This document shows positions 2,823 through 60,882 of a stretch of DNA of 64,000 nt, piece by piece. This stretch comes from Squalus acanthias (lineage: Eukaryota). How positions within the stretch are numbered: the first letter of the stretch is position 1; each line of letters opens with the position of its first letter. The stretch covers positions 157,544,001 through 157,608,000 of the forward strand of contig CM059431.1 of NCBI GenBank assembly GCA_030390025.1, in the 5' to 3' direction. A model generated the notes under the pieces. That model worked only from the letters and a program-made list of their open reading frames with translations. It was not told where the DNA came from and ran no database searches. The position numbers were made by a program, and so were the translations under genes.

Positions 2823-3260
2823 TGGGGAGATCTTATGAGGAAAGATTGAGGGAGTTGGGGCTTTTCTCTTTAGAGCGGAGGAGGATGAGAGGCGACTTAA
2901 TAGAGGTTTATAAGATGATGAGGGGGATAGATAGAGTGGATGTTCAGAGACTATTTCCTCGGGTAGAGGCAGCTGTTACAAGGGGGCATAACTATAAGGT
3001 GCATGGGGGGAGATATAGAAGGGATGTCCGAGGTAGATTCTTTACTCAGAGAGTGGTTGGGGTGTGGAATGGACTGCCTGCTGTGATAGTGGAGTCGGAC
3101 ACTTTAGGAACTTTCAAGCGGTTATTGGATAAGCACATGGAGCACACCAGAGTGATAGAGAGTGTGATAGCTTGATCTTGGTCTCGGACAATGCTCGGCA
3201 CAACATCGAGGGCCGAAGGGCCTGTACTGTGCTGTACTGTTCTATGTTCTATGTTCTATG
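2823..3260 (+). mobile_element. 5'-truncated young CR1 LINE 3' end inserted in the satellite
   Basis: ORF 2822-3175 (SYEERLRELGLFSLERRRMRGDLIEVYK...FFTQRVV) is a CR1 ORF2 C-terminus and ends in a (TTCTATG)n tail. The peptide differs by about one residue from the 27537-27944 copy. Confidence 0.95.
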
Positions 3261-14104: not shown

Positions 14105-14775
14105 TACACCGTCAATATTGTTCTCCTTTTCAGCCCTGCCAGAATTAGATTACCCGATGAATGACGTAGTGATTGAGAAAGATGCACAGCTGGACGTAAA
14201 CAGAGAATGTAGACAGCAGGTGAATCAGCACAGGATTGTGAGAGCACCAACTAGAGAGAACTCTTCCGATCCAAAGAGCTTCCATAGATCGATCTGGGCG
14301 AAAGGTAAGAGAAAGTCCAATTGAAAGTACACAATGGTTACAGGGTAAGGCAGGAAATGGTGAGAATGAGACTGGGAGAGTCTGACCATCGAACACAATT
14401 ATCCAGCATGAGGCCATGCACTGGGATGAGAAGTGAGATGAGTTTCTGTCGTTAACACACAGTCACAAGTGAATCTTGTGTGTATTTTAGAGTAAAGGGG
14501 TTTGGTCTAAGTGGTAACTCCAGTCTGGGGCAGAGCCCAGGAGATGGACACGTGTCTGTTTATTAGGTGGGGTTGAACTCACACCGAAACCAAGAGATCT
14601 CAATGTCAAAATGCCGCATCTGGTTACAAATCAAGGTCAAAGATTAAACAGAGAAGCTAATTATACTCAATTTACTGAAGACAATGCAGGTGCAAACTTC
14701 AAAGGTCAGCGCGGCCTGTTACCATTGGTTATGGAGTGTTGTCAGATAGTGAATGTTGAGCACAGCTTCATTACC
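14105..14775 (+). repeat. Segmental-duplication module, copy A
   Basis: Aligns by eye with 41565-42520 and 60311-60882 (e.g. GGTGAGAATGAGACTGGGAGAGTCTGA, CACAATTATCCAGCATGAGGCC, GCAGAGCCCAG). Confidence 0.9.
14134..14304 (+). CDS. Putative 171-nt symmetric phase-1 exon (ALPELDYPMNDVVIEKDAQLDVNRECRQQVNQHRIVRAPTRENSSDPKSFHRSIWAK), unknown product; may be UTR
   Basis: Acceptor TTCTCCTTTTCAG|, donor AAAG|GTAAGA, open frame, length divisible by 3. A disrupted paralog lies at about 41595-41776. Confidence 0.45.
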
Positions 14776-27232: not shown

Positions 27233-27464
27233 TAGTAGCTTAATGGCACCTCTATTATTTATTTTCTTTAACCTTCTAGATTTTGTCCTTTACCCCTCCA
27301 GGACATCCTTCCTCTCCAGTGTTGTAACATTCTCCTTAAACAATACTGCCACACCACCTCCTATCTTTCCTTCCCTATCTTTCCTGACACATTATAACCA
27401 GGAATATTTAATAACTAGTCTTGCCCTTTTTGGAGCCAGGTCTCAGTTACCGACACAACATCTT

Positions 27465-30400
27465 ACATAGAACATTACAGCACAGTACAGGCCCTTCGGC
27501 CCTCGATATTGTGCCGAGCATTGTCCGAGACCAAGATCAAGCTATCACACTCCCTATCACTCTGGTGTGCTCCATGTGCTTATCCAATAACCGCTTGAAA
27601 GTTCCTAAAGTGTCCGACTCCACTATCACAGCAGGCAGTCCATTCCACACCCCAACCACTCTCTGAGTAAAGAATCTACCTCGGACATCCCTTCTGTATC
27701 TCCCCCCATGCACCTTATAGTTATGCCCCCTTGTAACAGCTGCCTCTACCCGAGGAAATAGTCTCTGAACATCCACTCTATCTATCCCCCTCATCATCTT
27801 ATAAACCTCTATTAAGTCGCCTCTCATCCTCCTCCGCTCTAAAGAGAAAAGCCCCAACTCCCTCAATCTTTCCTCATAAGACCTCCCCCCCAAACCAGGC
27901 AGCATCCTGGTAAATCTCCTTTGCACTCTTTCCAATGCTTCCACGTCCTTCCTATAGTGAGGTGATCAGAACTGCACACAATATTCCAAATGTGGTCTCA
28001 CCAAGGTCCTGTACAGTTGCAGCATAACCTCACGGTTCTTAAACTCAAACCCTCTGTTAACAAACGCCAACACACCATAGGCCTTCTTTACTGCTCTATC
28101 CACTTGAGTGGCAAACTTCAGAGATCTGTGGATATGAACCCCGAGATCCCTCTGCTCCTCCACGTTCCTCAGAACCCTGCCGTTGACCCTGTAATGCTTA
28201 TTCAAATTTGCCCTACCAAAATGAATCACCTCGCACTTATCAGGGTTAAATTCCATCTGCCATTTTTCGGCCCAGCTCTGCATCCTATCAATGTCTCTTT
28301 GCAGCCTACAACTGCCCTCCACCTCATCCACTACTCCACCAATCTTGGTGTCATCAGCAAATTTACTGATCCACCCTTCAGTCCCCTCCTCCAAGTCATT
28401 GATAAAAATCACAGACAGCAGAGGACCCAGCACCGACCCCTGTGGCACACCGCTGGTAACTGGTCTCCAGTCCGAAAATGTTCCATCCACCACCACCCTC
28501 TGCCTTCTATGAGATAGCCAGTTACTTATCCAATCGGCCAAATTTCCCTCTATCACACAACTCCTTACATTCTTCATGAGACGACCATGGGGAACCTTAT
28601 CAAACGCCTTACTAAAATCCATGTATACGACATCAACTGCTCTACCTTCATCTACACACTTAGTTACCTCCTCAAAGAATTCAATCAAATTTGTTAGGCA
28701 AGACTTACCCTTCACGAATCCGTGTTGACTATCCCTGATTAAGTTGCCCCTTTCCAAATGGTCATAAATCCTATCCCTCAGGACCTTTTCCATTATCTTA
28801 CCAACCACCGAAGTAAGACTAACCGGCCTATAATTACCAGGGTCATTCCTATTTCCTTTCTTGAAGAGAGGAACAACATTCGCCACTCTCCAGTCCTCTG
28901 GCACCATCCCCGTGGACAGTGAGGACCCAAAGATCAAAGCCAGAGGCTCTGCAATCTCCTCCCTTGCCTCCCAAAGAATCCTAGGATATATCCCATCTGG
29001 CCCAGGGGACTTATCGACCCTCAGGTTCTTCAAAATTGCTAAAACATCTTCCCTCAGAACATCTACCACCTCCAGCCTATCCACCTTTATCACACTCTCA
29101 TCCTCAAGAACATGGCCCCTCTCCTCGGTGAACACTGACGAAAAGTATTCATTCATCACCTCTCCTATCTCTTCTGACTCCATGCACAAGTTCCCACTAC
29201 TGTCCTTGACCGGCCCTACCCTCACCCTGGTCATTCTTTTATTTCTCACATAAGAGTAAAAAGCCTTGGGGTTTTTCTTGATCCGACCCGCCAAGGACTT
29301 CTCATGCCCCCTCCTAGCTCTCCTAAGCTCTTTTTTTAGCTCATTCCTTGCTACCTTGTACCCCTCAATCGACCCAACTGAACCTTGTTTTCTCATCCTT
29401 ACATACGCTTCCTTTCTCCTCTTGACTAGACATTCAACCTCTTTGATGAACCATGGTTCTCTCACTCGGCCATTTCCTCCCTGCCTGACAGGGACATACC
29501 TATCAAGGACACGCAGTAATTGCTCCATGAAAAAGCTCCACTTTTCGTTTGTGCCTTTCCCTGATAGTTTCTGTTCCCATCTTATACTCCCTAATTCTTG
29601 CCTAATCGCATCATAATTACCCCTCCCCCAATTATAAACCCTGCCCTGCCGTATGGCCCTATCCCTCTCCATTGCAATAGTGAAAGTTACCGAATTGTGG
29701 TCACTATCTCCAAAGTGCTCTCCCACATACAAATCAAACACTTGGCCCGGTTCATTACCCAGTACCAAATCCAACGTGGCCCCACCTCTTGTCGGCCTAT
29801 CCACATATTGTGTCAGGAAACCCTCCTGCACACACTGTGCAAAAACTATCCCATCCGAACTGTTTGACCTATAAAGGTTCCAATCAATATTTGGAAAGTT
29901 GAAGTCACCCATGACAACTACTCTGTGACCTCCACACCTATTCATAATCTGCTTTGCAATTTCTTCCTCCACATCTTTATTACTATTTGGGGGCCTGTAG
30001 AAAACTCCTAACAACGTGACCGCTCCTTTCCTATTTCTAACTTCAGCCCATATTACCTCAGACGGCAGATCCCCCTCGAACTGCCTTTCTGCCGCTGTTA
30101 AACTATCCTTGATTAACAATGCTACTCCTCCACCTTTGTTACCAACTTCCCTACTCTTACTGAAACATCTATACCCCGGAACTTCCAACAACCATTCCTG
30201 TCCCTGTTCTAACCATGTCTCCGTAATGGCCACCACATCGTAGTCCCAAGTACCAATCCACGCTCCAAGTTCTCCTACCTTATTCCGGATGCTCCTTGCA
30301 TTGAAGTAGACACACTTCAAGCCATCTTCCTGTCTGCCGGTACATTCCTGCGACCTTGATACCCTCCTCAGTACCTCCCTACACTCACCACTGGCTCGTG

Positions 30401-30889
30401 GACTACAGCCCTTTTTCCCATCCCCCTGACAAATTAGTTTAAACCCCCCCCGAAGAGCCGTAGCAAATTTCCCTCCCAGGAAATTGGTGCCCCTCTGGTT
30501 CAGGTGCAAACCGTCCTGTTTGTACAGGTCCCACCTTCCCCAGAATGTGCTCCAATTATCCACATAACTGAAACCCTCCCCCCTACACCATCCCTGCAGC
30601 CACGTGTTTATCTGCACTCTCTCCCTGTTCCTCAACTCGCTAGCACGTGGCACCGGCAACAAACCAGAAATTACAACATGGTTTGTACTGGCTCTCAGCT
30701 TCCAACCTAGCTCCCTAAAATCCTGTTTTAAATCCCCGACCCTTCTCCTACCTATGTCGTTGGTACCGATGTGTACCACGACTTGTGATTGTTCCCCTTC
30801 CCCTTTGAGGATTCTGAAAACACGGTCCTAGACGTCACGGACCCTGGTACCCGGGAGGCAACATACCATCCGTGAGTCTCTTTTGCTGC
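27465..30889 (-). mobile_element. Young, nearly intact CR1 LINE (5'-truncated within ORF1)
   Basis: 937-codon open frame 30779-27966 plus continuation to 27537; near-identical to the 2823-3260 insertion. Confidence 0.97.
27537..30779 (-). pseudogene. CR1 ORF1 (SGNH esterase C-terminal part) fused in frame to ORF2 (APE endonuclease + RT); single TGA at 27966-27968
   Basis: HIGTND and DGLHLN (esterase); YFNARS, AITETW, GDFN, LDLVL, SDH (APE); [18 protein letters not shown] (RT). CVQF*SPHY shows a TGG>TGA change. The track start is GTG, and a further TAG lies upstream at about 30828-30830. Confidence 0.93.
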
Positions 30890-33490: not shown

Positions 33491-33789
33491 TAGGTCCATA
33501 GTGGGTGACCACACGCTTCACAACGTCGGATTACATCAGCCACAGCTTTGCCCACTCACTTAATCCACCAATGTCCATTTGCTGCTTTATTTTCCATCTG
33601 CACTGCTTACTGGGCGAACTAACTTAGTGTCGTCATCAAATTTAGTAATACGGCTCTGTACTCCTTCACCCAAGTCATTTATAAAATAGGAAAAAGGTGA
33701 ATGCGCAATACTGATCACTGGGGACACCACTGTTCCCATTATGTTGTTTTTGATCTCTAGGTTAACAGATATATATATATAATTCGTAA

Positions 33790-34170
33790 GACTTCTTATT
33801 GCAACGGTTTAATAACACATTTCTTATATTGATAAGGCTTATTTCAGTTCCTTTTGAACAGAGAATATTATTCCACATGCTATTCCTTAATCCCAGTACT
33901 GGGGGCGGTGCAATGAATATTTGCACATGTCCGTTTGACGATCTGGCTTCTTCCAACAAACGCAGTGAGAAGACTTTCCAGTCCATCTGTCTAAGTATGA
34001 GCCAGGCCTTCCAGAGTCACAAATAACACATGAAAACTCTTATATTCGTACCGCACACATCCTGTGAGCGTCACACTTACTGTTGGTCCAACTCATGTCC
34101 TGTCACACGCATTTCCTATTGCACATAATATGTCAAAGTTCCAGTTTAACCTTTCACTCGCCGTTACTAA
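33790..34170 (+). repeat. Diverged paralogous non-TE block (copy 1)
   Basis: Aligns with about 48090-48470 (shared CAACAAACGCAGTGAGAA, TTCCAGT(C/T)CATCTG, AGAGAATATT). Confidence 0.8.
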
Positions 34171-41564: not shown

Positions 41565-42520
41565 TCACACCGTCAATTTTGTTCTCATTTTCTGTCCTGC
41601 CATAATTAGATCTCCTGGTAAATGATGGAGTGATTGAGGAAGCTGCACAGCTGGAATTAAACAGGCATTGTAGACTGAGGAATGACAGCAGGTGAACCAG
41701 CACATGATTGTGAGAGCACCAACCAGGGAGAAATCTTCCGATTCAAAGAGCATTACTAGATCGACTGGGGAGCAAGTTAACAGGCAGTCCTATTGACTTA
41801 GATATACACTTGTGCTGGAGATGGACTGTGGAGAAAGGTAACAGAATGTCCCATTGACTCAGAGACACACTGGTCCTGGAGATGGACCGGGAAGAAAGGT
41901 CAGAGAGATTCTCAGTGACGCCGATACACTCTGGTCATAGAGACGGACTGGGGAGAAAAGTCAGAGAGAATCCCTTTGACTCAGATAGACACTGTTCCTG
42001 GAGATTGACCGGGGAGAAAGTTCAGAGAGAGATTCCAGTTGACTCAGATACACACTGGTACTGGAGATGGACCGGGGAGAAAGGTCAGAGAGAGTCCAAT
42101 TGTCACAGATATATCCTATTCCTTTAGACGTTACACAAAGGTTACAAGGTAAGGCGTTAAATGGTGAGAATGAGACTGGGAGAGTCTGAGCACCGACCAC
42201 AATTATACAGCATGTGGCCGTGCAATGAAATGTGAAGAGAGATCAGGTTCTGTCTCTGAACACACAGTCACAAGTGAATCTTTTACGTGTTTTCTAGTAA
42301 AGGGATTTGATCTAAATAGTGACTCTGGTCTGAGGCAGAGCCCAGCAGACGGGCACGTGCCTGTTTATTAGGTGGGCTGAACCCAAACCGACACCCTTAG
42401 ATCTCTATTATAAATTAGCTTAGATCTGGTGACAATTCAAATGGAAAGATTGAACCGGAAACACCATAGTCAGTTCACTAAACACGATGCACAGACCAAT
42501 CTCAAAGATCAGCAAGGTCT
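41565..42520 (+). repeat. Segmental-duplication module, copy B (exon paralog disrupted)
   Basis: Paralog of 14105-14720; the acceptor AG is changed to TG, there is an in-frame TAA, and a short insertion. Confidence 0.88.
41762..42112 (+). repeat. ~61-bp minisatellite (~6 units) inside module B
   Basis: Unit GAGAGTCCCATTGACTCAGATACACACTGGTCCTGGAGATGGACCGGGGAGAAAGGTCAGA; also about 1.7 units at 60311-60413. Confidence 0.9.
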
Positions 42521-45320: not shown

Positions 45321-45704
45321 ATAGTCCACGTTAAATTGAATTACTAAGTTTTGAAATTTTGGAGATTGTAATTCATTGGGAGTAATTTAAAGTAATGGAA
45401 ACTGGGCGGTAGTTTAATATTGGGGATATGGAATTGGCCGCCCAGTATAAAGCACGCCTGATACTCCCTTCCATTTACGTCAATGGGAAGGAAAATCGTC
45501 CGTTGTTCCAAATGAGCCGCTAATTCGATATTGTTCATATTACACTATTGCCCAGAGATAAAAATAAACCCTGATTACCTTTAGAGCAGCACTCTCTGTT
45601 TTTAACTACAAATGATTTACTGCCGTAATAACCGTGTGTTGCTAATAATTTACAGAATAAAGCACGATTGAAGTTAAAAATTATCTCGGCACTGATCCAC
45701 AAGC

Positions 45705-46830
45705 AGGTCCCGCACTCAGCCGAAAGCAACCGCACTTTCCGCACTCAACCTGACCCAACCGCACATCCCGCACTCATCCTGAACCACCCGCACGTCACGC
45801 ACTCACCCTGACCCACCCGCACATCCCGCACTCATCTTCACCCTACCGCACTTCCCGCACTCACACTGAACCACCCGCACGTCCCGCACTCACCCTGACC
45901 CACCCGCACTTCCAGCACTCACCCTGACCCACCCGCAACTCCCATACTCACCCTGAACCACCCGCACTTTCTGCACTCACACTGAACCACCTGCACCTCC
46001 CGCATTCATCTTGACCCACCCGCACTTCCCACACTCACACTGAACCACCCGCACGTCCCGCACTCACCCTGATCCATCCGCACGTCCGCACTCAGCCCCT
46101 GACACACCCGCACGTCCTGCACTCACCCTCACCCAACCGCACGTCCCGCACTCACCCTGTCCCACACGCACGTCCCGTACTCACCCTGATCCATCCGCAC
46201 TTACCACACTCACACTGACCCACCCGCACTTACCACACTCACCCTGACCCACCCGCACGTCCCGCACTCACCCTGTCCCACCCGCACGTCCCGCACTCAC
46301 CCTGATCCATCCGCACTTACCACACTCACACTGACCCACCCGCACGTCCTGCACTCACCCTGATCCATCCGCACTTACCACACTCACCCTGACCCACCCA
46401 CACGTCCCGCACTCACCCTGATCCACCCGCACTTACCACACTCACCCTGATCCATCCGCACTTACCACACTCACACTGACCCACCCGCACTTACCACACT
46501 CACCCTGACCCACCCGCACGTCTCGCACTCAACCTGCCCCACCCGCACTTCCAGCACTCACCCTGCCCCAACCGCTTGTCCCGCCCTCACCCTGACTCAC
46601 CCGCCCGTCCTGCACTCACCCTGACCCTGTCGCACTCACCCTGACGCACCCGCTCTCTCCCTGATCCAGCCGCACTTCCAGCACTCATTTTACCCACCCG
46701 CTCGTTTCGCACTCACCCTGACTCACTATCCCGTCCCGCACTCACCCTGACCCTGTCGCACTCACCCTGACCCACCCGCACGTGCCGCACTCAGCCTGAC
46801 GCACCCGCTTCTCTCCCTGGTCCATCCTCA
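45705..46830. repeat. ~29-bp C-rich minisatellite (ACCCTGACCCACCCGCACGTCCCGCACTC)
   Basis: Direct tandem units; the minus strand has four GGG runs per unit. Confidence 0.93.
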
Positions 46831-47030
46831 GGTCCTGCACTCATCTCCTGATGAACAATCAGCGGAAATATTTTTCACGATTTTAGAATTCACAAATTGA
46901 TGGCCTCGTTTCTCGATTTCGTATCAGCGCTGCAATGGAATTATTTTGAATCCACATGTTTCTGTTCTGTTCTAATATACCCTGCTATAACCTGAAATTA
47001 TTGTTTTTTGCAGGTAACACGTTGCCTGAG

Positions 47031-47526
47031 ATGGGGCACTCATCAAGTAAACAAAGCGGTGCAAGAAAACAACGCCAGATTCAAGGCCCTGCTCCTGGGG
47101 AAGATGCTCAGGCCCCAGGAACCTGTACAAGTGAAGAGAGTCTGATTCAAGGCCCTGCTCCTGGGGAAGATGCTCAGGCCCCAGGAACCTGTACAAGTGA
47201 GCAGAGTCAGATTCAAGGCCCTGCTCCTGGGGAAGATGCTCAGGCCCCAGGAACCTGTACAAGTGAGCAGAATCAGATTCAAGGCCCTGCTCCTGGGGAA
47301 GGTGATCAGTCCCCAGGAACCGGTACAAGTGAGCAGAGTCAGATTCAAGGCCCTGCTCCTGGGGAAGGTGATCAGTCCCCAGGAACCGGTACAAGTGAAC
47401 AGAATCAGATTCAAGGCCCTGCTCCTGGGGAAGGTGATCAGGCCCCTGGAAACGGTACAAGTGAAGTGACTCCTTCCCCCGGAGGTTTATTAAATATGAA
47501 TACTACAAACTTTGACCAAAAAACAG
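47031..47526 (+). CDS. Putative first coding exon (exon 47014-47526): MGHSSSK + six 22-aa repeats; possibly N-terminus of a shark NLR-type protein
   Basis: Acceptor TTGTTTTTTGCAG| at 47013, Kozak GAGATGG at 47031, open frame, donor ACAG|GTTAGT in phase 1, which joins in frame to 55804. Confidence 0.65.
47076..47465 (+). repeat. 66-bp coding tandem repeat x6 (QIQGPAPGE[DA/GD]Q[A/S]PGT[C/G]TSEQ[S/N])
   Basis: ATTCAAGGCC recurs at 47079, 47145, 47211, 47277, 47343 and 47409 with no indels. Confidence 0.97.
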
Positions 47527-47840: not shown

Positions 47841-48089
47841 CCCAAGATAAGCCTACTAACTCATTTATATCATTACCCTCACGTGAGCCTTGCATTACCT
47901 GTTGCCCAGGCACTCTCAAAACTCCCCTCCCCAATTACCAGAATTCTCCTCGATTCACTACAAATTCCTATCTGTGTATTCGTCAGCCCAGTAGCAGCAG
48001 CAACATCTTCTGCACACGGAGAATACATATTAATAATTTCTGCTAAATAACATAATAACACAGCAGGCTGCATAGAAACATATACTTCA

Positions 48090-48470
48090 TAGGGTTTCCC
48101 GTTGCCATGGCTTAATAAAGCATTTTTAACATTGATAACGCCTGTTTCAATTCCTTTTATAAGAGAGAATATTGTTCATTTGTTCAGTCCTCCCAGCACT
48201 GGAGGCGCTGCATAGAACATTCACACTTGTCCGCTTGCCATTCTCGCCAGTTTCAACAAACGCAGTGAGAACGCATTCCAGTTCATCTGCCTAATCATGA
48301 GCGAAACCATGGAGATTCGGCAGTAAAGAATTAAAAGTCTTATTTATAATGCACACTTCCTGTAAGCGTAAAACTTATTGCTGCCCTCGTCCTTGTCACA
48401 TTCACTTCCTGTTACACGTAAAACTTCACAATGCAGACATTAACTTTGAAGTGTAACCTCTCACTCCCCG
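48090..48470 (+). repeat. Diverged paralogous non-TE block (copy 2)
   Basis: Paralog of 33790-34170. Confidence 0.8.
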
Positions 48471-48479
48471 TTACTGGGG

Positions 48480-50712
48480 TCTCGTTCAAGGGCTGGGTCA
48501 GTGGTGTTTCGGTGTTGGGCTGGATCAGTGTGGTTTCGGTGTAAGTCCGAGTCAGTAGTGTGTCGGTCAAGGGCTGTGTCTTTGGTGTGTCGGTGTGGGG
48601 CTGGGTCAGTAGGGTGGCAGTGTAGGGCTGGGTCAGAAGGGTGTCGGTGAGGGTCTGGGTCAGTGGGGTTTCGGTGTTGGGCTGGGTCAGTGGGGTGTCG
48701 GTGTAGTGGTGGGTCAGTGGAGTGTCGGTGAGGGGCTGGGTCAGTAGGGTGTCAGTTTAGGCCTGGATCAGTGGGGTTTAGGTGTAGCGGTAGGTCAGTG
48801 GGGTGCCGGTGTTGGGGTGGGTCAGTGGGGTTTCGGTGTAGGGGTGTGTCAGTGGGGTTTCGGTGTAGGTGTGGGTCAGTGTGGTGCCGGTGTTGTGCTG
48901 TGTCAGTGGGGTGTCAGTGTAGGGGTGGGTCAGTGGGGTGCCGGTGTTGGGGTTGGGTCAGTGGGGTGTCGGTGTAGGGCTGGGTCAGTGTGGTGTCGTT
49001 GTAGGGGTGGGTCAGTGGGGTGCCGGTGTTGGGCTGGGGAAGTGGGGTGTCGGTGTATGGGTCGGTCAGTGGGGTGTCGGTGTTGGGCTGGTTCAGTGGG
49101 GTGTCTTTGTAGGGGTGGGTCAGTATGTTGTTTATGTAGGGCTCGATCAGTTGGGTGTCGTTGTAGGGCTGGGTCTGTAGGGTGTCAGTGTCGTGCTGGG
49201 TCAGTAGGGTGTCAGTGTCGTGCTGGGTCAGTAGGGTGTCAGTGTAGCGCTGGGTCCGTGTGGTGCTGGTGTAGGGCTGGTACCAGTAGGGTGTCAGTGT
49301 CGTGCTGTGTCAGTAGGGTGTCAGTGTCGGGCTGGGTCCGTGTGGTGCTGATGTAGGGCTGGGTCAGTAAGGCGTCACTGTCGTGCTGGTTCAGTAGGGT
49401 GGCAGTGTATGGCTGGGCCAGTAGGGTCTCAGTGTAGGGCTGGGTCAGTAGGGTGTAGGTGTAGCGCTGGATCAGCTGGGTGTCTGTGTAGGGCTGGGTC
49501 AGTAGGGTGTCGATGTGGGGCTGGATCAGTGGTGTGTCGGTGTAGGGCTGGGTCAGTGGTGTTTCGGTGTAGGGCTGGGTCAGTAGGGTGTCGTTTTCGG
49601 GCTTGGTCAGTAGGGTGTCGATGTAGGGCTGGGTCAGTAGGGTGTCGATGTGGGGCTGGGTCAGTAGGGTGTCAGTGTAGCGCTTGGTCGGTGTGGTGCT
49701 GGTGTAGGGCTGGGTCCGTGTGCTGTGGGTTTGGGGCTGGGTCAGTAGGGTGTCGATGTGGGGCTGGGTCAGTAGGGTGTCAGTGCAGCGCTGGATCAGT
49801 CGGGTGTCGATGTAGGGCTGGGTCGGTAGGGTTTCGGTGTAGGGCTAGTTAAGTAGGGTGTCAGTGTAGCGCTGGGTTTGTCGTGTGTCGATGTAGGGCT
49901 GGATCAGTGGCGTGTCGATGTAGGGCTGGGTCAGTATGGTTTTGGTATAGTGCTGGGTCAGTAGAGATTCAGTGTAGCGCTGGATCAGTGTGGTGTTGTT
50001 GTAGGGCTGGGTCCGTGTGGTGTAGTTGTCTGGCTGGGTCCGCGTGGTGTTGGTGTAGGGCTCGGTCAGTAGTCTGTCGTTGTAGGGCTGGATAAGTGGC
50101 GTGTCGATGAGGGCTGTGTTAGTATGGTGTTGGTATAGGACTGGGTCAGTCGGGTGTCAGTGTAGTGTTAGATCAGTGGGATGTCGTTGTAGGGCTGGGT
50201 GGTAGGCTGTCGGTGTGGGACTGGGTCAATAGAGTGTAAGTGTAGCGTTGGGTCAGTGGGGTGTTGGTGTAGGGCTGGGTCCGTGTGGTGCTTGTGTAGG
50301 GCTTGGTCCGTGTGGTGTGGGTGTGGGGCTGGGTCAGTAGGCTGTCAGTGTAGGGCTGGGTCCGTGTGGTACTGGTGTAGGGCTGGGTCAGTGGGGTGTG
50401 GGTGTAGGGCTGGGTCAGTCGGCTGTCAGTTTAGGGCTGCATCAGTGGGGTGTGGGTGTAGGGCTGGGTCAGTAGGCTGTCAGTGTAGGCTGGGTCCGTG
50501 TGGTGCTGGTGTAGGGCTGGGTCAGTGGGGTGTGGGTGTAGGGCTGGGTCAGTAGGCTGTCAGTGTAGGGCTGGGTCAGTGGGGTGTGGGTGTAGGGCTG
50601 GGTCAGTAGGCTGTCAGTGTAGGGCTGGGTCAGTGGAGTGTGGTTGTAGGGCTGGGTCAGTGGGGTGGCGGTGTAGGGCTGGATCAGTAGGGTGTTGTTG
50701 CAGGGCTGGGGT
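48480..50712. repeat. 27-bp G-rich minisatellite (GGGCTGGGTCAGT[A/G]GGGTGTCGGTGTA)
   Basis: About 80 tandem units; gives spurious CRCRAGSVG ORFs. Confidence 0.96.
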
Positions 50713-55803: not shown

Positions 55804-55896
55804 ACCATCCGAATCTGGGAACGCCTGCCACCAGCATGGCTGAAGGTCCAAACAGGGGAGAAGATACAACATCTTCAAGAATGAGAATGGACACAG
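55804..55896 (+). CDS. Putative 93-nt symmetric phase-1 exon (DHPNLGTPATSMAEGPNRGEDTTSSRMRMDT); recalled as resembling shark NACHT-LRR protein N-termini
   Basis: Branch point CTAAC at about 55774, acceptor TTTATTACAG|, donor ACAG|GTGGGT, internal strong-Kozak ATG at 55836. The family assignment is from memory and unverified. Confidence 0.6.
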
Positions 55897-59877: not shown

Positions 59878-60077
59878 NNNNNNNNNNNNNNNNNNNNNNN
59901 NNNNNNNNNNNNNNNNNNNNNNNNNNNNNNNNNNNNNNNNNNNNNNNNNNNNNNNNNNNNNNNNNNNNNNNNNNNNNNNNNNNNNNNNNNNNNNNNNNNN
60001 NNNNNNNNNNNNNNNNNNNNNNNNNNNNNNNNNNNNNNNNNNNNNNNNNNNNNNNNNNNNNNNNNNNNNNNNNNNNN
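59878..60077. other. Assembly gap (200 N)
   Basis: Run of exactly 200 N, likely a placeholder size. Confidence 0.99.
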
Positions 60078-60310: not shown

Positions 60311-60882
60311 AGAGAGAGTCCCATTGACTCAGATACACACTGGTCCTGGAGATGGACCGGGGAGAAAGGTCAGAGAGAATCCCATTGACTCAGATACACA
60401 CTGGTCCTGGAGACAGTACACAAAGGTTACAAAGTGAGGCAGGTATTGGTGAGAATGAGAGTGGTAGTGTCTGACCACCGAGCACAATTATCCAGCATGA
60501 GGCCGTGCAATGGAATGCGAAGTGAGATCAGTTTCTGTCTCTAAACACAGAGTCACAAATAAATCTTGTGTATGTTTTAAAGTAAAGGGGTATGTTTCAG
60601 AGTAAAGGGGTTTAATCTAAGAGGTGACTCTGGGGTAGAGTCTGGAGCAGAGCCCAGCAGATGAACACGTGTCTGTTTGTTAGGTGGGGCTGAACTCACA
60701 CCGACACCATCAGACCTCAGTGTTAAAATAGCTCAGATCTGGTGACAAATCAAGGGGAAAGATTGAACAGGGAAACTAATTAAAATCAATTCATTGAACA
60801 CGATTCAGAGACCAACCTATAGCCTGTGACCAGCAGATATGGAGTATTGTCAGATAGTGAATGCTGAGCACAGCGTTATTAC
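60311..60882 (+). repeat. Segmental-duplication module, copy C (partial, flanked by CR1s)
   Basis: 61-bp units followed by a paralog of 14326-14773, including GTCAGATAGTGAATG(T/C)TGAGCACAGC. Confidence 0.9.

Follow-up and report, generated by a model that had tools for sequence, protein, structure and literature searches.

A repeat-bearing exon of a shark NACHT-LRR receptor family in Squalus acanthias and its possible role as a lipid-anchored N-terminal module

The repeat exon and its setting

The window analyzed here is a stretch of 64,000 nucleotides from Squalus acanthias (assembly GCA_030390025.1, contig CM059431.1, positions 157,544,001 to 157,608,000), in which a putative N-terminal-module exon of 513 nt lies on the plus strand at 47014..47526. 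It has phase 1 at both ends and is thus symmetric (1-1), it is bounded by the acceptor TTTTTTGCAG and the donor GTTAGT with an open frame between these AG/GT ends, and it stands out in contig depth (see below). An ATG at 47031, with G at both -3 and +4 and so in the strong Kozak context ascribed to it in an earlier note on this DNA, opens the segment 47031..47075 (plus strand; ATG + MGHSSSKQSGARKQR), where an N-myristoylation motif is predicted together with a basic patch (net charge +4). The G at +4 by itself makes a glycine at position 2 (Gly2) likelier. The frame is already open from the acceptor through to this ATG (NTLPE/M), and so the exon by itself is no proof that ATG 47031 is the start.

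Six repeats of 22 amino acids (QIQGPAPGE...) follow at 47076..47471 on the plus strand; they are acidic (net charge -19) and predicted to be disordered, and by the charge-hydropathy line they count as disordered (0.382 vs 0.465). The first 66-nt unit begins at 47076, Tandem Repeats Finder reports 5.9 copies with 95% matches and 0% indels, and a short unique stretch after the array closes the exon. The placing of the exon in the earlier note, with its MGHSSSK start and six gap-free units, is thus confirmed down to the exact exon limits. All six units contain IQGP, and they form the two sub-blocks seen before, EDAQAPGTCT in units 1-3 and EGDQ[S/A]PG[T/N]GT in units 4-6. Over the 60 nt that they share, units differ by 1-2 nt within the first block, by 1-4 within the second and by 4-7 between blocks, and these small within-block and larger between-block differences fit the stepwise expansion that had been proposed. 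The exon is flanked, at 45692-46843 and 48475-50710, by C-rich 29-bp and G-rich 27-bp satellites of opposite strand skew, which might pair with each other or influence how the exon recombines.

The next exon after it is the leader exon usual in the family (55804..55896, plus strand; 93 nt, phase 1-1), which has tblastn matches from 54 family proteins and whose ATG at 55836 gives MAEGPNRGEDTTSSRMRMDT. Evidence on splicing comes from contigs of four runs from two studies, presumed to be RNA, none of the runs found being on record as such, and derived from related sharks or paralogs (0.09-0.22 of words). Contig depth is zero at 46900-47007 in all four runs and high on the exon, with loose ends at both exon borders. 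The loose ends behind 47523-47526 resemble the 55804 exon in all four runs; one has 26 bases identical to it, but is one base off register and has a depth of 2.8. Two contigs run for 81 and 82 nt across ATG 47031 without a difference, X3 and X5 leave the ATG uncovered, and low-depth contigs extend into the intron. Exons of this type are spliced to the family leader exon in what is probably RNA of related sharks. Since most of the contigs are paralogs, they are evidence for splicing of the exon type and not for expression of the window copy.

Upstream, a loose end before 47015 (X1, X2) matches 41758-41776 with 1 mismatch in 19, and it points to a candidate exon at 41610..41898 (plus strand) that is probably untranslated and whose donor is uncertain: position 41776 reads G/TT, and AAG/GT occurs at 41837, 41898 and 42083. 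Two of the four loose-end motifs have no match anywhere in the window. Among five upstream joins to 47014 (30 upstream RNA bases seen), three give a stop and no ATG, and two add an ATG. The two nearest AAG/GT donors give an in-frame stop and no ATG upstream of 47031; an in-frame upstream ATG arises from joins to donor 42083 or to an exon at 14149-14304, and would bury the Gly2 motif.

The exon candidate at 14149-14304 has a strong donor (AAG/GTAAGA) and 51 open codons, and its ATG is in frame continuing into 47014. Three copies, 77-78% alike, of a module of upstream exon plus intron lie at 14106-14774, 41567-42513 and 60311-60882, an arrangement suggestive of alternative first exons or of 5' gene segments in tandem. 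Each of the first two is no more than about 1 kb behind a long array of 40-bp satellite; the third has no exon and lies behind an N gap (59878-60077). A segment at 33769-34128 is 72% similar to 48072-48421 in the intron behind the repeat exon; it has a LINE-like element in front and no repeat exon, and is possibly a copy that lost the module. Satellites and LINE-like reverse transcriptase frames make up most of what remains of the window. One such frame (27966-30827, minus strand), which we take to be CR1-like, is open for 953 aa with endonuclease and reverse transcriptase, and the 98% identity between 27457-27888 and 2824-3255 is a sign of recent LINE-like activity. No CARD, NACHT or LRR exon was found within the 64-kb window, and so the window copy could be dead or without a receptor body.

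The receptor family that carries the exon

A search among longer proteins gave 9 matches from 8000 candidates, all of them from sharks (Pristiophorus, Heterodontus and Scyliorhinus), with E-values from 2.7e-108 to 2e-7. In seven of the nine, NACHT is accompanied by matches to winged helix, HD2 and LRR; the other two are partial. The earlier note had guessed at an immune receptor and had proposed a protein search for NACHT and LRR; homology in this search bears the guess out for the gene family. Proteins of similar length yielded no match among 8000 candidates. Representatives at 50% identity gave 24 matches, three of which are family members (P0006, P0010, P0136); the other 21 were rejected as relatives, seeming on inspection to be unrelated low-complexity repeats, and none of the 24 is a convincing non-shark relative of the repeat.

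The protein P0002 has the same order as here, namely an MG start, repeats, leader peptide and CARD region. Depending on the gene model, the exon type joins the leader exon, the CARD region or the NACHT region directly, as is possible for a symmetric exon. In P0004 and P0136 the tail runs directly into the NACHT region without a CARD, and these models are possible decoy or sensor forms, or model artefacts. Full-length homologues stop right after the LRRs and have no C-terminal CARD. Neither a FIIND nor a B30.2 match was found in the nine shark homologues scanned, which are relatives of the window copy.

In the model of P0006 the domain behind the tail folds confidently. Compared with CARDs it reaches a best Z of 11.5 (rmsd 1.4 A over 80 residues), and CARDs make up most of the 30 rows at Z >= 8; helical bundles can also reach such scores, and the CARD ranking is consistent. 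Foldseek likewise puts CARDs in its top rows, but none at E <= 0.001. An Atlas match to a CARD (0.89) is a lead only. The effector domain in these relatives is predicted from the model to be a CARD rather than a PYD. By family profile the nearest structures are 9ln6 (an NLRP14 complex) and NLRP3, and NLRP1 is matched only over NACHT-LRR. Most or all residues of the homologous tails have a pLDDT <50; the full-length AlphaFold model, with a mean pLDDT of 57, was used for the tail and the C-terminal end only.

With the CARD region as query, 704 proteins were found. Among the 120 of these that were listed, 61 start at a MAEG-type leader ATG; 7 carry the repeat and 113 are without the module. The number of units found per protein runs from 1 to 24. 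In a quick tree of 51 NACHT regions, which has weak support and in which rows appear grouped by species, 11 changes are required to place the 12 carriers. A count as low arose in 333 of 500 label shuffles and is thus no smaller than with shuffled labels; the well-supported branches force just 2. This scatter of carriers fits a mobile module. The reading frame is kept in all carriers across the three genera. The repeat exon is an optional module of a known shark NLR family.

Most of the ray models among P0011-P0040 and P0059 have two or three copies of the CARD region, and several repeat the leader peptide. Three ray proteins (P0015, P0025 and P0029) begin MGxxxS; their close relatives begin MD, MS, MH or MV.

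The N-terminal motif and the role of the repeats

Starts were compared in 14 repeat-bearing proteins, the start being set at the closest Met ahead of the first unit, with the window included and P0010 omitted as partial. Seven of the 14 have Gly2, and all seven also have Ser or Cys at position 6 and Lys at position 7, while positions 3-5 vary (MGHSSSK, MGQSSSK, MGNPSSK twice, MGQFLCK, MGQLLCK and MGKLLSK). This combination is found again in three named genera of sharks as well as in one further record; MGNPSSKQ is common to Heterodontus and Pristiophorus, and one of the seven motifs, that of P0004, is internal to the gene model. Five Heterodontus copies (MENSS) have neither G2 nor K7, and two near-identical S. 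torazame entries begin MSLLSSK. Positions 7-16 of every G2 start hold 2-4 basic residues, and in four of them a Cys as well. Lys7 is favorable for N-myristoylation; His3, as in the window, is a weak point, being barred by the PROSITE pattern, and Utsumi is said to have found in 2001 that it is tolerated when Ser6 is present. The window start agrees with the Gly2 plus Ser/Thr6 consensus MGxxxS/T, in which Ser6 is neither sufficient nor critical (PMC4736023, in part), and the basic residues or Cys after G2 fit the rule of a second membrane signal (PMC13279330, in part). From this pattern of residues, acylation of Gly2 by N-myristoyltransferase is likely. The N-myristoylation proposed in the earlier note thus gains from the recurrence of the motif; it does not extend to the seven proteins without Gly2, and the start codon is unproven.

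The explanation that we favor, at about even confidence, is that the exon is an optional N-terminal module whose likely myristoylated Gly2 holds a CARD-NACHT-LRR receptor at the membrane on a disordered spacer. Translation would start at ATG 47031, N-myristoyltransferase would acylate Gly2, and the second membrane signal would be the basic patch or, in the catshark copies, Cys palmitoylation. The repeats would form an acidic, predicted-disordered spacer of 1-24 units whose length sets its reach and which unequal crossover would homogenize within each lineage; they would act as a tether and not as a selected cut site, and anchor and spacer together would keep the predicted CARD-NACHT-LRR body at the membrane. 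Because half of the repeat-bearing proteins have no Gly2, the anchor seems dispensable for the repeats. Other findings that speak against this arrangement of anchor and spacer are His3, the G at +4, the internal motif of P0004, the two joins that would bury Gly2 and the lack of receptor-body exons in the window; in addition, the I, P, A, E and G positions of the repeat are 91-99% constant over 99 units, beyond what a pure spacer needs, and the MAEG-type leader ATG is where 61 of the 120 listed models begin. If the anchor is confirmed, sharks fit some copies of a large sensor family with an exchangeable exon that gives a membrane address, and if it is true, location would bear on the function of the expanded NLR repertoire.

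The MAEG-type starts also favor a near-neutral extension, in which the exon is a coding minisatellite in a dispensable tail, or in which ATG 47031 is internal or bypassed and the leader ATG at 55836 is the working start. The 113 of 120 listed models without the module, the half of the carriers without G2, the two of five upstream joins that allow an upstream in-frame ATG, and the six of eight variant codons among the window units that alter the residue point the same way. We nevertheless consider it unlikely, if still a serious contender, as the frame is intact in all carriers of three genera, G2, S/C6 and K7 are fixed while positions 3-5 vary, and the first ATG stands in a strong context where the two nearest AAG/GT donors give a stop and no upstream ATG.

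Constancy of the repeat could also mean that it serves as a multivalent array (E-[QH]-S-Q-I-Q-x-P-A, E-x-D, T-G-T) at which a host partner docks or a kinase, an O-GlcNAc transferase or a caspase acts, with copy number tuning avidity; we think this distinctly unlikely. The 99 homologous units keep I in 90, P in 98 and the later E, G and E in 95, 96 and 92, but they are homogenized within lineages, so that the counts amount to about four independent samples. Codons 2-9 of the unit are invariant among the six window units and the listed RNA variants, but in the window this invariance takes in silent sites. The Asp of E-x-D is Ala in three of the six window units, and the residue after it is Q or K, which is poor for caspases. 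Pfam has no match in the tail, and the repeat has no convincing non-shark relative among the 24 matches described above.

The earlier note had read the repeats as a viral-protease tripwire cut at Q/GP. In the form considered here, a pathogen 3C or 3C-like protease would cut I-Q/x-P, free the CARD-NACHT-LRR body from the lipid anchor and activate the receptor. Q-G-P is present in all six window units, and the ESLIQ/GP of unit 2 is, we presume, like the rhinovirus site. Among the 40 of 56 rows listed, the exon has 20 variant places, none of which touches QGP. In 99 units from 13 homologues, Gln is at P1 in 85 and Pro at P2' in 98. Q and P are, however, kept no better than their neighbors, with the Ile, Ala, Glu and Gly positions also kept, and the units are homogenized within lineages. 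The pairs at P1/P1' are Q/H in 46 units, Q/A in 25, H/G in 14, Q/G in only 12 and Q/T in 2 (P0136 has 8 further Q/T units beyond this count), and to our knowledge Q/H and H/G are not 3C junctions. Within the IQxPA core the residue that follows Gln varies most, being G, H, A or T by lineage, and the lineage-specific G, A and T could mirror an arms race. With S, N or R at P4 in the window, the enterovirus 3C motif [A/hydrophobic]xxQG (PMC7857732, in part) fits none of the six window sites and none of the 12 homologous Q/G units, though fish proteases may prefer otherwise. Picornaviruses and caliciviruses are common in fish, with no mention specific to sharks (PMC11237817, in part). Activation of NLRP1 requires FIIND processing, and one site suffices there (PMC7857732; also 10.1101/2024.06.24.600508; both in part).

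As the relatives have neither a FIIND nor a C-terminal CARD, NLRP1-type activation cannot apply to them, and since their CARD lies behind the repeats, N-degron degradation would take the effector CARD with it rather than free it. The Q/GP tripwire is therefore not upheld; QGP is unchanged in the variants listed for the closest RNA paralogs but is not conserved across genera (12 of 99). Release by a 3C-type cut is in our view very improbable, and we give little credence to a FIIND-independent tripwire in the N-myristoylated subset of shark NLRs, in which any I-Q/x-P cut would activate, P1' would track viral proteases and copy number would set sensitivity. A viral tripwire would matter more than an anchor, but the findings lend it little support. 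We also rejected an amyloid or RHIM interpretation, since the core here is QIQG and not the IQIG of RHIMs, in a repeat protein of 12% Pro; TRAF6 and tankyrase motifs do not fit the repeats by eye.

Comparison with known systems

The same repeat (56-64% identity) and the same leader exon are present in the elasmobranch NACHT-LRR (NLRP3-like) proteins XP_067916099.1, XP_038656754.1 and UniRef100_UPI00398EAE92, and a subset of this NLRP3-like family has the same N-terminal motif. The NLRP3-like names are automatic, and the modeled effector of the shark family differs from them in being a predicted CARD and not a PYD. This CARD-NACHT-LRR family is probably the NLRP-related expansion described in the whale shark (Tan et al. 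2021, PMC8455134), and the accessible part of that paper makes no mention of the repeat tail. Callorhinchus is reported to be without CARD-containing NLR and without ASC, and the bamboo shark to have ASC (preprint 10.64898/2026.07.03.736391, in part). Automatic gene models, then, already include this family with its repeat, and fish NLRs with repeat tails have been described. Apparently new is a conserved N-myristoylation motif, as predicted from sequence, on a vertebrate NLR. The listings of the literature searched, with its few subscription papers, showed no N-myristoylated vertebrate NLR and no description of the shark tail, though alignments that show it could be among the supplements to Howe et al. 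and Tan et al. In a review of plant NLRs the word 'myristoyl' does not occur.

Zebrafish NLR-B30.2 proteins of groups 2-4 share with the shark proteins variable-number N-terminal repeats, an expanded NLR family and shuffling between bodies. Their repeats are of about 30 aa, with N-terminal peptides on single exons (Howe et al. 2016, PMC4852459, in part), whereas the shark repeats are of 22 aa, all six in one exon, and the shark homologues gave no B30.2 match; 'myristoyl' has 0 occurrences in the zebrafish paper. The human NLRP1 and CARD8 tripwires likewise have a disordered N-terminal region with Q-G in an NLR. NLRP1 depends on FIIND autoproteolysis and a C-terminal CARD and carries a motif-conforming site (Tsu et al. 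2021, PMC7857732, in part). In the shark proteins the predicted CARD is N-terminal, a FIIND is lacking and no site fits the motif. For the sharks, a disordered, accessible N-terminal region such as that of NLRP1 and CARD8 is a prediction from composition and the low pLDDT of homologues.

Closer to the favored role of the exon as anchor and spacer are acylated innate immune proteins. The plant proteins RPS5 and PBS1 are N-myristoylated, and plants have acylated NLRs, to which the shark receptors would be alike if their anchor is confirmed. According to reviews, in which N-myristoylated NLRs go unmentioned, TICAM2/TRAM is myristoylated (PMC12246121, in part) and NLRP3 is S-palmitoylated (PMC12125403, in part). 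These systems differ in their makeup, RPS5 being a plant NB-ARC receptor, TICAM2 not an NLR, and NLRP3 a user of internal Cys palmitoylation and a polybasic linker; in each of them a lipid anchor puts an innate sensor or adaptor at the membrane, as we propose for the shark module.
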